Part shown: positions 1 to 29,844 of the stretch, piece by piece
Layout: every line of letters starts with the position of its first letter
Numbering within the stretch: the first letter of the stretch is position 1
NCBI GenBank assembly: GCA_964559355.1
Contig: CAZLHQ010000001.1
Span: 52,553-116,552, forward strand
DNA from: an uncultured Hyphomicrobiaceae bacterium
GTDB taxonomy: Bacteria; Pseudomonadota; Alphaproteobacteria; Rhizobiales; Hyphomicrobiaceae
Direction of reading: 5' to 3'
Length of the DNA stretch: 64,000 nt
Program-made: the position numbers and the translations under genes
The notes under the pieces: model-generated
The model's input: only the letters and a program-made list of their open reading frames with translations
Told to the model about the DNA's origin: nothing
The model's database searches: none

Positions 1-1728
1 TACCACATTGTCGCGCGCTATTTGGGGTTTTATGGCGCAATACGACTGGGCGCCTGTGTCGTCGTCGGCACGGCGCTGTGGGCAACGCTGCTGTTGCTGG
101 TTGGCCAGCAAGGCATTCCACGCACTGTTGTGCTGGCCTATGCCGTGGTTGGCACGATGGCGGTCGTCATGGTGCGACTGCTTGCCGCCAACGTGCTGAG
201 CGGCATCGGCATCAACGTGCAACGCAGGTGGCGCGACTCTCAAGCGCAAATCCCTGTTCTCATTTACGGAACCGGCGAGCTTGCGGTACAACTCGGCCAG
301 ACCACCCGCAAAAGCCGAACGCGCAAGTTGATTGGCTACGTCGACAGCAGCAGCGCCATGATTGGCCGCTACATCGGCCGCAACAAGGTCTATCGGCTCA
401 GCAAGATCCAGTCGCTGATACAGGACAATGGCGTTGAGGAAATCTACATCGCCGATCCCCTGCAAACCGCGTCCGAGCGCCGCTCTCTTCTGAAATCTCT
501 CGAGCAGTACAAACTCCGGGTTCGGTTGATCCCGGACTTGGAATCGCTGGCGTCCGGACGGATCAGCCTCAGCCAACTGCGGGGTATCCAAGCCAAGGAT
601 CTGCTCGGACGCGAGGAGGTTCCTCCCAACGAGGAACTGATCGCCGCCAGCATTCGCGGCAAGACCGTGCTGGTTACGGGCGCTGGCGGCTCGATCGGTT
701 CTCAATTGTCGTTGCGGATCGTAGGGCTTGGCGTCAAGCGGCTCATCCTTCTCGACAATTCGGAAATCGCATTGCACCAGATCGAGCAATCGACGCGCGA
801 AGTGATGGCCGAACTGGAAACGCCGCCCGAATGCGTGAGCGTTCTGGGGTCGGTGCAGAATGTCGATGTGATCGAGGAAGTGCTCCGCGAGTACGATGTG
901 GATAGCGTTTTTCACACCGCGGCGTTCAAGCATGTCCCCATCGTTGAAAAGCATCCGCTTGCCGGGATCGCCAACAACGTTCTGGCAACGGAGCTGCTGG
1001 CGCGCGCCTGTGTCGAACACCACGTCGAGCGATTCGTGCTGGTCTCGACCGACAAAGCTGTCAGACCGGCCAGCGTGATGGGGGCGACAAAGCGACTTGC
1101 CGAGCTCATCATCCAAGGGTTTGCGACCACTCAGAAGGAAACCATCTTCACCGCCGTGCGCTTCGGCAATGTTCTCGAAAGCTCAGGCTCGGTCGTTGGC
1201 ATATTTCGCCATCAGATCAACTCCGGCGGTCCTGTGACCGTGACCGACCGCAACGTCGTGCGCTATTTCATGTCGCTCGAGGAGGCGACCAACCTCGTGC
1301 TTCAGGCCGCCGGCATGGCGGTGGGTGGCGAAGTCTTCGTGCTGGACATGGGGTTGCCGGTGAAAATCGACGACTTGGCGCGATCGATGATCCGCCTGAT
1401 GGGGCTTGAGGAGCGCACCCCCAGCAACCCCGAGGGCGACATCGAAATCTCATACATTGGCTTGCGTCGCGGCGAGAAGCTGGTCGAAGAGCTGGTCATC
1501 GCCGAACAAAATGCCTCGGACACTCAGCACCCGCGCATCTGGAAATCGCATGAACCTTCTGTCGATCCCGAGGCGCTCGCCAAGGAGCTTGAATTGCTCA
1601 AATCGGCTGTGAGATTCCGAAGCGTTGCGATGGCGTTGACGTCGCTGTCGCGGATCATCGAAGGATACACTCCGGCAGCAACCAGGCGTGAGGAAGTGCG
1701 CTTGCCGGAAAAGATCGTGCTCCACTGA
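1..1728 (+). CDS. CapD/WbpM/PglF-type membrane-anchored UDP-GlcNAc 4,6-dehydratase, with the 5' end probably outside the window
   Basis: The ORF track gives 22..1728 (TTG start), but the frame is open from nt 1. N-terminal TM helices are followed by the Rossmann motif VLVTGAGGSIGSQL, then STDKAVRPASVMGATKRLAE (the Met-for-Tyr variant typical of WbpM/PglF) and FGNVLESSGS. Confidence 0.85.
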   Translation, partial: YHIVARYLGFYGAIRLGACVVVGTALWATLLLLVGQQGIPRTVVLAYAVVGTMAVVMVRLLAANVLSGIGINVQRRWRDSQAQIPVLIYGTGELAVQLGQTTRKSRTRKLIGYVDSSSAMIGRYIGRNKVYRLSKIQSLIQDNGVEEIYIADPLQTASERRSLLKSLEQYKLRVRLIPDLESLASGRISLSQLRGIQAKDLLGREEVPPNEELIAASIRGKTVLVTGAGGSIGSQLSLRIVGLGVKRLILLDNSEIALHQIEQSTREVMAELETPPECVSVLGSVQNVDVIEEVLREYDVDSVFHTAAFKHVPIVEKHPLAGIANNVLATELLARACVEHHVERFVLVSTDKAVRPASVMGATKRLAELIIQGFATTQKETIFTAVRFGNVLESSGSVVGIFRHQINSGGPVTVTDRNVVRYFMSLEEATNLVLQAAGMAVGGEVFVLDMGLPVKIDDLARSMIRLMGLEERTPSNPEGDIEISYIGLRRGEKLVEELVIAEQNASDTQHPRIWKSHEPSVDPEALAKELELLKSAVRFRSVAMALTSLSRIIEGYTPAATRREEVRLPEKIVLH

Positions 1729-1905
1729 GCTTCAAGTGCTATCGACCTCGAAGGTGTCGCTGTCTCAGGCCATCAAGCCCGTAACCGGCGCCACGCTTCG
1801 AGGATGCAAGGCGCGCTCCCGGCTCTTGTGAGAACGCCAAACGCGCCTTTGGCTTCGCCGATCTCGCTTATGACTTGATCGGCGGATGTGGAAACCACGG
1901 CGGTC

Positions 1906-28353: not shown

Positions 28354-28389
28354 CAACCTTGCATCCGGCGCAGCCCGGCCATCCCGGGG

Positions 28390-29844
28390 CTACTTCGTCT
28401 CCTCTGGAGCGCGACGGTAGATGTCGTCGGTGCGAACGATGTCGTCCTCGCCCAAGTACGTGCCGATCTGCACTTCGATGATTTCGAGTGGCACCTTGCC
28501 AGGGTTTTCCAGGCGATGCCATTGCGTGGCGAAGATATAGACGCTCTCGTTTTCGCGCACGAGCTTCTCAGTATCACCGATGAACACATTCGCCGTACCT
28601 TGCACCACGATCCAGTGCTCGGAGCGGTGATGGTGCATCTGCATGGAAAGCTTGCCGCCTGGCTTAACGTGCAGCAGCTTCACCTGGAAGCGCGGCCCCA
28701 ACGATAGCGTTTCGAAATAACCCCACGGCCGGAAGTTGCGCAGGTGCTGTTCGTGCTCCTTGCGGTTGGACTGCTTCAACCGCTTGACGATGGTCGAGAC
28801 GTCCTGCGAGCGTGAGCGGTCCGCAACAAGCAGTGCATCGGGCGTATCGACGATGACGAGATTCTCGACGCCGATCGTGGCAACGAGCGATTTCTCCGAG
28901 TGGACGTAGCAACCCTTTGTGTCTTCGAGGATTGCGTCGCCGTGGATGTAATTTCCGCTTTCGTCGTGCGGTGCAATGTCCCACAGCGAAGCCCACGAGC
29001 CGACATCGTTCCAGCCGACGTCGATTGCAAGCATTGCCGCCTTGTTGGTGCGTTCCATGACGGCATAGTCGATCGATATACTGGGCGATGCCGCAAAAGG
29101 TGTGGCGGCCAGGCGCTCGAAGCCCAGATCAAACGTGCGACCCTGGTAGGCCGCGGTTGCCGCGGCGAGCACCTCTGGCGCCAGGCGGGCCATTTCATCG
29201 AGGAACGTGCGCGCACGCAGCACGAAGATGCCGCTGTTCCAGAAATAATCTCCGGCCGCGAGATAGCGCTCTGCGGTTGACTGGTCCGGCTTCTCGCTGA
29301 AACTGGCGACGACATGCGCACCATCATTGAGCCCTTCGAGCACCGTACCTTTACGGATGTACCCATAGCCGGTATGCGGCTCGGTCGGCTTGATGCCGAA
29401 CAAGACGAGCCGGCCGCTGTCGGCAACGCGCGCTGCGCGCTTGACCGCTGCAATGAACAGCGCGTCGTTCTCGACAACATGGTCGGACGGCATCACGGCA
29501 ATGATCGCATCCTTGTTCTCGGCCAAGGCTGCGAGCGCCGCGACAGCGATGGCAGGAGCGGTGTTGCGCGCGACCGGTTCCAGGATGATCGATTTGGCCG
29601 TGACGCCGCTACGGTCGAGTTCCTCGCGCACGAGAAATCGGTGGTCGTTGTTGCACAGTAGGATTGGTGCAGCAAAGCCGTCGTCGGCGGCGAGCCGGGT
29701 CAAGGTTGCACCAAGAAACGTGGTACTTTGTCCGTTGAAGAAGTGAATGAACTGCTTTGGATACATCGCACGCGACAGGGGCCACAGCCGCGTGCCCGAA
29801 CCTCCAGACAAGATCACGGGATAGACAGTTGGCGTCTTTTGCAT
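28390..29844 (-). CDS. manC: Mannose-1-phosphate guanylyltransferase / mannose-6-phosphate isomerase (type II PMI-GMP)
   Basis: PVILSGGSGTRLWPLSR, FWNSGIFV and the C-terminal cupin WGYFETL..VKPGGKLSMQMHHHRSEHWIVVQG. Confidence 0.92.
   Translation of the reverse strand: MQKTPTVYPVILSGGSGTRLWPLSRAMYPKQFIHFFNGQSTTFLGATLTRLAADDGFAAPILLCNNDHRFLVREELDRSGVTAKSIILEPVARNTAPAIAVAALAALAENKDAIIAVMPSDHVVENDALFIAAVKRAARVADSGRLVLFGIKPTEPHTGYGYIRKGTVLEGLNDGAHVVASFSEKPDQSTAERYLAAGDYFWNSGIFVLRARTFLDEMARLAPEVLAAATAAYQGRTFDLGFERLAATPFAASPSISIDYAVMERTNKAAMLAIDVGWNDVGSWASLWDIAPHDESGNYIHGDAILEDTKGCYVHSEKSLVATIGVENLVIVDTPDALLVADRSRSQDVSTIVKRLKQSNRKEHEQHLRNFRPWGYFETLSLGPRFQVKLLHVKPGGKLSMQMHHHRSEHWIVVQGTANVFIGDTEKLVRENESVYIFATQWHRLENPGKVPLEIIEVQIGTYLGEDDIVRTDDIYRRAPEETK

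Follow-up and report, generated by a model that had tools for sequence, protein, structure and literature searches.

Among the characterised O-polysaccharide systems that depend on an ATP-binding cassette (ABC) transporter whose Wzt protein has a binding module, a coiled-coil ruler carries the terminator enzyme at its distal end, and the cap both halts chain growth and is the feature that the transporter recognises (PMC11231755). The known caps are methyl, methyl-phosphate and 3-deoxy-D-manno-octulosonic acid (Kdo); pyruvate is a variant that does not regulate (PMC11231755). The ORF6 protein of Klebsiella O7 has a catalytic domain, then a coiled coil, then two modules of glycosyltransferase (GT) family 2 that build a rhamnan (PMC11231755). 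The present analysis concerns a glycan locus on contig CAZLHQ010000001.1 (assembly GCA_964559355.1) of an uncultured Hyphomicrobiaceae bacterium. The locus occupies about the first 30 kb of the 64,000-nucleotide stretch that was analysed, which is called the window here (Table 1). The best explanation, to which we assign a probability of roughly 0.6, is that it specifies an ABC-transporter-dependent glycan of the O-antigen type on which sulfate serves as the chain-terminating cap, and that the capping enzyme is broken in this genome.

The largest protein of the locus shares its order of N-terminal catalytic domain, coiled coil and, putatively, GT module(s) with WbdD (Escherichia coli O9a and Klebsiella O3 and O5), WbbB (Klebsiella O12) and ORF6 (PMC11231755, PMC3482155). 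The locus also resembles these systems in having a neighbouring Wzm/Wzt with a carbohydrate-binding module and, as in O7, genes for dTDP-rhamnose. However, in place of a methyltransferase, kinase or Kdo transferase, its distal domain is one of the Sulfotransfer_3 type. The putative donor is 3'-phosphoadenosine 5'-phosphosulfate (PAPS), a PAPS branch lies in the locus itself, and the gene is interrupted by a stop codon. A sulfate cap is proposed because the large protein has the layout of a terminator, in which a sulfotransferase takes the place of the terminating enzyme, beside a Wzt that has a carbohydrate-binding module. The large protein would thus act as a terminator of the WbdD/WbbB type, a meaning that the preliminary description had missed. 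The sulfotransferase at its tip would add the sulfate cap, the coiled coil would set the chain length, and the Wzt module would admit only capped chains to export and ligation. We infer sulfate capping, ruler-set length and cap-gated export from the architecture and the associated genes, by analogy with the characterised systems. Full-text searches returned no paper in which a sulfotransferase is said to terminate a chain; these searches did not cover the cap census of Mann, Kimber and Whitfield 2019 (Glycobiology 29:822), which possibly already predicts it.

With its stop codon read as tryptophan, the large protein exceeded the Pfam cutoff for Sulfotransfer_3 in its N-terminal 300 residues. 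The HRSGTS and KDPR motifs and an R-x7-S pair (R138 to S146) are invariant across 27 diverse relatives, and these residues fit a putative PAPS-binding site. The sulfotransferase domain was common to all 119 homologs and was nearly always N-terminal. The stalk is almost devoid of proline and glycine, and the power of its 3.5-residue hydrophobic period was 1.84, compared with 0.24 +/- 0.24 for shuffled sequences; none of 2000 shuffles reached the observed value. The order of domains given in the preliminary description, a sulfotransferase fused to a coiled coil and a GT, is found on read-through, with the GT a probable one, but the open reading frame (ORF) itself is interrupted by TAG. Two smaller elements of the protein can be recorded here. 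The segment STSWRLTKPVR (21761-21793, minus strand; amino acids (aa) 694-704), just past the coiled coil, is kept in the relatives P0002, P0003 and P0004 despite their differing downstream modules and may be a membrane-association or docking element. A cluster C-x12-C-x9-C-x2-C (20825-20905, minus strand; aa 990-1016) within the C-terminal domain is invariant across seven relatives and may be a metal site.

The exporter is joined to the PAPS branch. A single tight operon comprises the genes for a CysN-CysC fusion with a degenerate CysN domain, CysQ, Wzm, Wzt, a GT8-like GT and the sulfotransferase-like protein st299, and constitutes a co-directional plus-strand block (5660-12650) in which the last two ORFs have no Pfam match. 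The cysC-fusion gene and cysQ overlap by ATGA (7615-7618), wzm and wzt overlap by 11 nt (9440-9450), and the cysC/cysQ pair lies 9 nt upstream of wzm. Both overlaps, and the co-oriented position of an adenosine 5'-phosphosulfate (APS) kinase and CysQ directly upstream of wzm-wzt, had been given exactly in the preliminary description. Translational coupling links the PAPS genes with the exporter. As predicted from its gene content, the operon couples the conversion of APS to PAPS, and the removal of 3'-phosphoadenosine 5'-phosphate (PAP), to export and to the GT/sulfotransferase-like pair. The nearest solved structure to the window Wzt is that of Aquifex aeolicus Wzt (E 1.9e-68).

PAPS genes together with sulfotransferases in one cluster are a stated hallmark of sulfated polysaccharides (PMC11641403), so that the use of these genes to mark a sulfated glycan cluster is an already published idea. 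The capsule cluster of Vibrio sp. KMM 8419 is like the window locus in several respects: a rhamnose-containing sulfated polymer, ABC export, a low-GC mosaic, and second copies of PAPS genes with several sulfotransferases within the glycan cluster (PMC11641403). It is unlike the window locus in having a full set of cysN, cysD and cysC and a KpsMT capsule transporter, in lacking a Wzt carbohydrate-binding module, a coiled-coil sulfotransferase fusion and cysQ, and in carrying its sulfate on the rhamnose of the repeat unit (PMC11641403). With respect to NodQ/CysNC, the window fusion has the same order of two domains and retains the eEF1A-like beta-barrel domains, but it lacks motifs G1, G3 and G4, has no adjacent cysD and falls below the NCBIfam cutoff.

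LpsS and KpsS sulfate alphaproteobacterial surface polysaccharides from the PAPS of enzymes of the NodPQ/CysDN-CysC type, and the KpsS-modified capsule is nodPQ-dependent. Both are stand-alone genes, and are not known to be embedded with PAPS genes in a Wzm/Wzt locus. Sulfation of rhizobial lipopolysaccharide (LPS) and capsule is established for Sinorhizobium meliloti LpsS and Mesorhizobium loti KpsS (cited in PMC11625862 and PMC12595478).

The last two genes of the operon belong to unannotated families. The GT8-like ORF, which most likely starts at 10834 as called in relatives, represents a family of 82 "hypothetical" members that share an invariant DxD motif but lack any Pfam domain. Its AlphaFold2 (AF2) model had a predicted local distance difference test (pLDDT) score of 95.3, and Foldseek gave 388 matches at E<=1e-3, among them the GT8 domain of LARGE1 (5e-9), UGGT, glycogenin and WbbM. 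The predicted fold and the DxD motif are shared with these retaining GT-A enzymes of families GT8 and GT24, including the xylosyltransferase domain of LARGE1. However, the window protein has no detectable sequence similarity to them, and its family is paired or fused with an st299-type domain. The GT8-like domain is fused N-terminal to such a domain in at least eight representative proteins, and in Mesorhizobium australicum the genes for the two are neighbours. Because they are fused or adjacent elsewhere, the two are a functional unit, which plausibly adds a sugar and sulfates it. The pair, together with st251, would supply part of the cap or additional residues that bear sulfate. P0191 is a single protein of 889 aa that contains a Stf0-type sulfotransferase, a GT8-like domain (48% identity to the product of 10834-11754) and an st299-type domain.

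The proteins st299 and st251 are paralogues (pairwise E 3e-7), and st251 matches many members of the st299 family. The HVGLPKTG[TS] loop and the R120-x7-S128 pair are invariant in this family, a pattern that is read as the sulfotransferase type (PK-x-GT[ST]) and not as Walker A (GxxxxGK[ST]). A profile search with st299 identified 17,332 representative relatives at E<=1e-3. Among 138 family members that were scanned, 21 matched Sulfotransfer_4 (PF17784), with a best E of 3.7e-8, above the cutoff; five matched Sulfotransfer_1, and none matched kinase families. Thus st299 and st251 are probably a divergent, previously unannotated branch of the sulfotransferase fold, as judged from these family matches and motifs.

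The gene arrangement recurs outside this genome. Near-identical, independent metagenome contigs are syntenic with the window from pglF to rmlA at 83-99% amino-acid identity, and the combination was found in other genera. A scan of species-representative genomes identified 371 relatives of the N-terminal domain, mostly in Hyphomicrobiales and Rhodobacterales, using patterns from a seven-sequence alignment; an earlier, more diverse alignment gave none. Neighbourhoods were counted within +/-10 kb in the best 80 of the 371 loci, and included a Wzt-like ATPase in 28, rml genes in 18-23 and an APS kinase in 7. By a rough estimate, chance would place an APS kinase within 10 kb in fewer than one locus. 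The arrangement is therefore beyond chance, since the left half is syntenic and the APS kinase recurs in 7 of 80 loci. These seven loci with both an APS kinase and the large-protein family are from Hyphomicrobiales; four also have Wzm and Wzt with the module, in two cases together with rml genes. When the seven loci with the closest Wzt were considered, the binding module was present in all seven (32-43% identity to the window module), the ATPase domain had 66-78% identity in six, with locus L015 having the module alone within range, and an APS kinase was in range in four.

Hoeflea poritis is the clearest parallel to the window locus. Its genes comprise rmlACBD, wzm, wzt with the carbohydrate-binding module, intact cysD and cysNC, and one for a protein of 1198 aa. 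In this protein a homolog of the N-terminal domain precedes a stalk, and two GT2 modules make up the C-terminal part, as in ORF6 of O7. Two further strains differ from the window in a variable cassette that extends from the serralysin gene to rmlC. L085 has an intact large gene, adjoined by the st251 ortholog, and the DxD gene, but the gene for the 239-aa methyltransferase is missing from this otherwise syntenic locus. In L086 the N-terminal sulfotransferase and the stalk are the same, but the GT and methyltransferase modules attached to them differ.

The core claim of the preliminary description, a sulfated, rhamnose-containing glycan exported by an ABC transporter, is thus well supported, because the PAPS genes are coupled to the exporter, the N-terminal domain exceeds the PF13469 cutoff and the combination recurs in other genera. 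The claim has to be amended in that the PAPS supply is incomplete and the fused sulfotransferase is nonsense-interrupted. For the intact relatives (P0002-type, Hoeflea poritis and several Hyphomicrobiaceae), we tentatively suggest, at somewhat under even odds, that sulfate caps an ABC-exported O-polysaccharide of the rhamnan type, that the Wzt module reads this cap and that the GT8-like/st299 pair adds a sulfated sugar.

Several results weigh against the sulfate-cap reading. First, its key gene is interrupted by TAG in this genome. The tryptophan that the stop replaces is present in P0002, P0003 and P0004 and invariant across the 27 diverse relatives, and the two closest relatives have TGG where the window has TAG. 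The annotated product covers 20123-23500 only, starts inside a domain and is without the PAPS-binding loop; the reading upstream of it in the same frame is ...LLVLGSHRSGTSMLTRIL...EIKSS*HDWRQ.... A homolog search with the read-through query returned this truncated product at 100% identity, from the same public assembly, and the full-length P0002 (1250 aa) at 64% identity. A hidden alternative start or frameshift at the stop was considered and rejected: an ATG that overlaps the TAG lies in another frame, and no in-frame start follows until a TTG at 23500, 36 codons downstream of the TAG. Because the TAG separates the PAPS-binding loop from the rest of the protein, the capping domain is predicted to be impossible to make as part of the protein in this genome. 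A catalytic domain and stalk in a single polypeptide were found in P0002, P0003 and P0004, but not here. Barring an assembly error or a substitute enzyme, this strain is unlikely to make a chain that is capped and exported in the normal way.

These results also bear on the possible, if less favoured, explanation that this strain has a locus in decay, or one that has been switched off. The stop would then be real, capped export would be absent, the LPS would be rough or altered and the PAPS branch idle, and the same erosion would include the loss of cysD and of a working CysN domain. A TAG in place of an invariant tryptophan agrees with this, as do the public annotation, which already calls the truncated 1125-aa product, and a first restart at a TTG without a clear ribosome-binding site. 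In addition, systems of the type described by Whitfield select inactivating mutations upon the build-up of uncapped chains (PMC11231755). However, every other gene of the locus is an intact ORF, and the TAG may be a single-base assembly error. The degenerate CysN-CysC, moreover, recurs at 96% identity in many independent metagenome contigs, and because this identity is kept it is a stable form and not fresh decay.

Secondly, the locus is without its own source of APS. The APS kinase named in the preliminary description is the C-terminal part of a CysN-like fusion, in which the kinase domain is intact but the GTP-binding motifs are lost. Pfam found an eEF1A-like C-terminal domain and the APS kinase in this product, with no match to GTP_EFTU. 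The NCBIfam CysNC model NF004035 scored 569 bits against a cutoff of 715, matching only from aa 134. An alignment was made with the CysNC of Hoeflea poritis, which is intact and lies beside a related locus. It showed that G1 has changed from GSVDDGKS to GQSGHSTS (GKS to HST), G3 from DTPGH to QFTGP and G4 from NKMD to AVRR. Neither cysD nor a remnant of it was found across the whole 64 kb. Because the CysN motifs are destroyed and cysD is absent from the window, the locus is predicted to convert APS to PAPS and to remove PAP, but to be unable to make APS, for which an ATP sulfurylase gene outside the locus would be needed. The built-in PAPS supply that had been claimed is thus limited to the APS-to-PAPS step and CysQ; there is no ATP sulfurylase, and the CysN domain is dead. 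The kinase half shares 63% identity with its counterpart in the Hoeflea poritis CysNC, keeps the P-loop GLSGSGKST and scored 246 bits with TIGR00455 (cutoff 138.7). Related loci have either intact CysD and CysNC or a bare CysC, and the kinase is predicted to be a conserved requirement of such loci. The pseudo-GTPase CysN domain could persist as a docking domain for a housekeeping ATP sulfurylase.

Third, the assignment of the small proteins to the sulfotransferase fold is made at the level of the family. As single sequences, st299 and st251 had no Pfam or NCBIfam sulfotransferase match at E<=0.01, and st299 had a faint match to PF17784 only (E 0.073). The AF2 model of st299 (pLDDT 89.6) gave weak Foldseek results, with a best E of 1.8e-3 and template modelling (TM) scores of 0.3-0.45; sulfotransferases were at the top, and GPN GTPases and nucleotide or P-loop kinases were mixed in at similar scores. 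A comparison of the st299 family with the sulfotransferase domain of the large protein by hhalign aligned only the 26-column loop that binds the 5'-phosphosulfate (PSB loop), at a probability of 13%, and homology of the two families is not claimed. Searches of PDB sequences gave no meaningful match for st299 (as a single sequence or as a profile), st251, the GT8-like protein (orf316) or the DxD protein (orf352). Thus, of the three sulfotransferase-fold domains originally counted, the large one exceeds its cutoff on read-through, but the other two fail sulfotransferase hidden Markov models (HMMs), an outcome that the preliminary description had named as refuting its claim, and have family-level evidence only.

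The failure of these two ORFs and the mixed Foldseek list would also be expected if the sulfotransferase-like domains were P-loop kinase-like enzymes and the APS kinase and CysQ served general sulfur metabolism, being present here by accident. This is very improbable, since the motifs are PK-x-GT[ST] and HRSGTS and not Walker A, the large domain exceeds its cutoff and members of the st299 family match sulfotransferase families alone. It also disagrees with the cysC/cysQ overlap and the 9 nt to wzm, and with the recurrence of cysC beside the large-protein family in other genera.

Fourth, the matches of the C-terminal domain of the large protein to GT families are weak, and its profile had no match among PDB sequences; from its sequence the domain is nevertheless probably a glycosyltransferase. 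We also infer, rather than observe, both the sulfate on the product and its position.

Lastly, the features around the large-protein family are not constant. No cysQ was found within +/-10 kb in any of the best 80 loci, and an extension with the length of the carbohydrate-binding module was present in only 8 of the 28 Wzt genes. Because of the latter count, a cap-reading transporter is not universal for the family. The lack of the module in most of these Wzt genes is one reason to consider that sulfation may be an internal decoration of the repeats. The coiled coil would then scaffold the polymerase, and the Wzt module would read another feature, for example a methyl cap added by the 239-aa methyltransferase. 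Three sulfotransferase-like domains and one methyltransferase also exceed the needs of a single cap, characterised sulfated bacterial polysaccharides carry sulfate within the repeat (PMC11641403) and methyl caps are an established chemistry (PMC11231755). Internal decoration is nevertheless unlikely, because the order of catalytic domain, stalk and putative GT is that of every characterised terminator, with the helix-rich stalk directly after the sulfotransferase domain in 101 of the 119 homologs, and because L085 lacks the methyltransferase yet retains an intact sulfotransferase-coiled-coil gene.

If the sulfate-cap reading is true, sulfate would join the short list of caps that halt O-antigen polymerisation and license export, as a cap chemistry outside the experimentally established set (methyl, methyl-phosphate, Kdo and pyruvate). 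O-antigen length and export would also be tied to the cellular supply of PAPS through a PAPS branch co-transcribed with the exporter. Among the cultured strains that have intact versions are Hoeflea poritis E7-10 and Roseibium suaedae DSM 22153, besides species of Mesorhizobium and Paracoccus. Three unannotated families were flagged: the st299 type, its GT8-like partner and the large protein's C-terminal domain, which is rich in Cys. The locus also provides a case in which a predicted active APS kinase retains its fused CysN domain as a pseudo-GTPase.

Table 1. Features of the glycan locus and its intervening genes, with positions in the window.
Feature	Position	Strand	Evidence and remarks
PglF/WbpM-type UDP-sugar 4,6-dehydratase	1-1728	+	Polysacc_synt_2, 356 bits; 5' end cut by window edge
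GT4-family glycosyltransferase (adaptor or primer GT)	1888-3084	+	Glyco_trans_1_4, 83.7 bits; Glycos_transf_1, 67.8 bits
Small PglC-type phosphoglycosyl transferase, initiating enzyme	3130-3687	+	185 aa; Bac_transf, 173 bits
Wzy_C/O-antigen-ligase family membrane protein	3741-5036	-	Wzy_C, 68.6 bits; faint TfpM match, E 0.005
CysN-like pseudo-GTPase fused to intact APS kinase	5660-7618	+	652 aa; APS_kinase, 228 bits; CysC domain about aa 470-650
CysQ 3'(2'),5'-bisphosphate nucleotidase	7615-8442	+	TIGR01331, 250.2 bits (cutoff 228.8)
Wzm ABC-2 permease	8452-9450	+	ABC2_membrane, 97.6 bits
Wzt ATPase with C-terminal carbohydrate-binding module	9440-10807	+	ABC_tran; Wzt_C PF14524, 82.7 bits, aa 341-476
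GT-A fold GT8-like (retaining-type) glycosyltransferase, unannotated family	10834-11754	+	306 aa; AF2 and Foldseek; no Pfam match
st299, divergent sulfotransferase-like protein	11751-12650	+	Loop HVGLPKTGTS; R120-x7-S128
GT2-family glycosyltransferase	12990-13928	-	Glycos_transf_2, 51.4 bits
rmlC-rmlB-rmlD-rmlA	14016-17495	-	dTDP_sugar_isom 243, GDP_Man_Dehyd/Epimerase 299, RmlD_sub_bind 339, NTP_transferase 262 bits
st251, second divergent sulfotransferase-like protein	17517-18272	-	GC 0.479; loop WAKCASTS (AKCAST); Lys, Glu, Arg, Trp and Ser kept
S-adenosylmethionine (SAM)-dependent methyltransferase	18318-19037	-	239 aa; Methyltransf_25/11/31
DxD protein (orf352), presumed GT, no annotation	19068-20126	-	352 aa; no Pfam, NCBIfam or PDB match
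Sulfotransferase - coiled coil - GT-B-like gene, nonsense-interrupted	20123-23872	-	1249 codons; GTG start after GAGGAG
C-terminal domain, probably GT-B/GT4-like	20126-21295	-	About 400 residues; Glyco_trans_1_4 E 0.087; Glycos_transf_1 E 0.15; E-x7-E motif at 20345-20371
Coiled-coil stalk, putative molecular ruler	21878-22957	-	About 360 residues (aa 306-665); SMC-type matches, E 1.5e-10
Sulfotransfer_3-type domain	22973-23797	-	PF13469, 31.4 bits (cutoff 27), stop read as Trp, N-terminal 300 residues
3'-phosphate-binding (3'PB) motif RNPLDVISS	23375-23401	-	Large-gene sulfotransferase domain
KDPR motif	23477-23488	-	Large-gene sulfotransferase domain
In-frame TAG, codon 89, just past PAPS-binding loop	23606-23608	-	Replaces invariant Trp
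PSB loop HRSGTS	23753-23770	-	Large-gene sulfotransferase domain
Serralysin/RTX metalloprotease	24745-26661	+	Pfam/NCBIfam; not a glycan gene
Phage tail-fibre-like protein	26875-28353	+	492 aa; DUF2793, endosialidase tail-spike segment, Peptidase_S74 chaperone domain; GC 0.659
manC (GDP-mannose pyrophosphorylase/phosphomannose isomerase), peripheral	28390-29844	-	NTP_transferase and MannoseP_isomer

The ORF listing and the Pfam and NCBIfam scans of the window identified nearly all of the genes named in the preliminary description, and the initiating enzymes, the Wzy_C ligase family, rmlCBDA, manC, Wzm/Wzt and the methyltransferase were all confirmed. The minus strand carries the GT2 gene, the rml genes (transcribed C-B-D-A), an ORF with no match, the SAM methyltransferase gene, another ORF with no match and the very long ORF. 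The low-GC cassette contains st251, the methyltransferase, the DxD protein and the 1249-codon gene. GC falls from about 0.60 to 0.475-0.51 across 17.5-21.5 kb and is 0.53-0.54 across 10.8-12.6 kb; given these shifts, "mosaic" was a fair description. The extent of about 30 kb given for the glycan locus is correct for most of the genes, but about 4.5 kb of it (23.9-28.4 kb) consists of genes unrelated to the glycan pathway and a spacer. A megablast search of 5-24 kb against plasmids matched the rml genes alone, at 73-76% identity, and identified no related locus.

The locus extends leftwards beyond the window, because the dehydratase frame is open to base 1 and near-identical contigs (L002-L004, 99% identity) have a gene of 646 aa. 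From the roles of their families, the PglF/WbpM-type dehydratase, the small PglC-type transferase and the GT4 would carry out initiation. All four enzymes of the dTDP-L-rhamnose pathway, RmlA, B, C and D, are encoded, and elongation would produce a rhamnose-containing chain from dTDP-L-rhamnose. The candidates for elongation are the GT2, the GT8-like GT-A enzyme, the DxD protein and the large protein's C-terminal domain.

The ligase family protein may be WaaL or a PglL-like O-oligosaccharyltransferase, as the Wzy_C match fits both. This match, the faint TfpM match and the PglF/PglC-like initiation genes are the grounds for an improbable alternative, in which the product is not an LPS O-antigen but a glycan for protein glycosylation by a PglL/TfpM-like enzyme, or a capsule or S-layer glycan. 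However, a Wzm/Wzt with Wzt_C is typical of O-polysaccharide export. A dehydratase and small transferase of the same kind initiate the O-antigen of Rhizobium etli, which is primed with N-acetylquinovosamine (QuiNAc).

The DxD protein always directly follows the same type of large-protein C-terminal domain in L014, L027, L039, L073 and L085. Identities of 31-82% were found to neighbours of the large proteins, or to modules inside them, in these five and in P0004, where the related module is fused into the large protein; the two form a conserved pair. A relationship of orf352 to the GT8-like family was not significant with hhalign and was rejected; thus orf352 stays a presumed GT.

Whether manC belongs to the pathway is uncertain, and it is detached from the cluster because unrelated genes intervene. 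Its neighbourhood is the same in L086, where manC abuts the serralysin gene; for this reason the tail-fibre-like gene, which sits between the two in the window, looks like an insertion. The serralysin-type protease is the constant right neighbour of the variable glycan cassette in three strains (the window, L085 and L086), at 75-85% identity. No type I secretion genes were found adjacent to the serralysin gene within the described locus. Between the large gene and the protease, about 870 bp (23873-24744) contain no credible gene, and the long Arg-rich ORFs there look spurious.

Further to the right, a gene for an Alph_Pro_TM protein lies beside one for a TauE/SafE sulfite-exporter family protein (34022-36064, minus strand); this adds one more sulfur-related gene to the window, with no evident tie to the glycan locus. 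A 611-aa protein (60795-62630, minus strand) matches the HlyC family of RTX-toxin acyltransferases in its C-terminal 130 residues. A 1139-aa Sel1-repeat protein (36386-39805, minus strand) and a circularly permuted ATP-grasp protein (CP_ATPgrasp_1/2; 53436-54887, plus strand) appear to be encoded by ordinary chromosomal neighbours.

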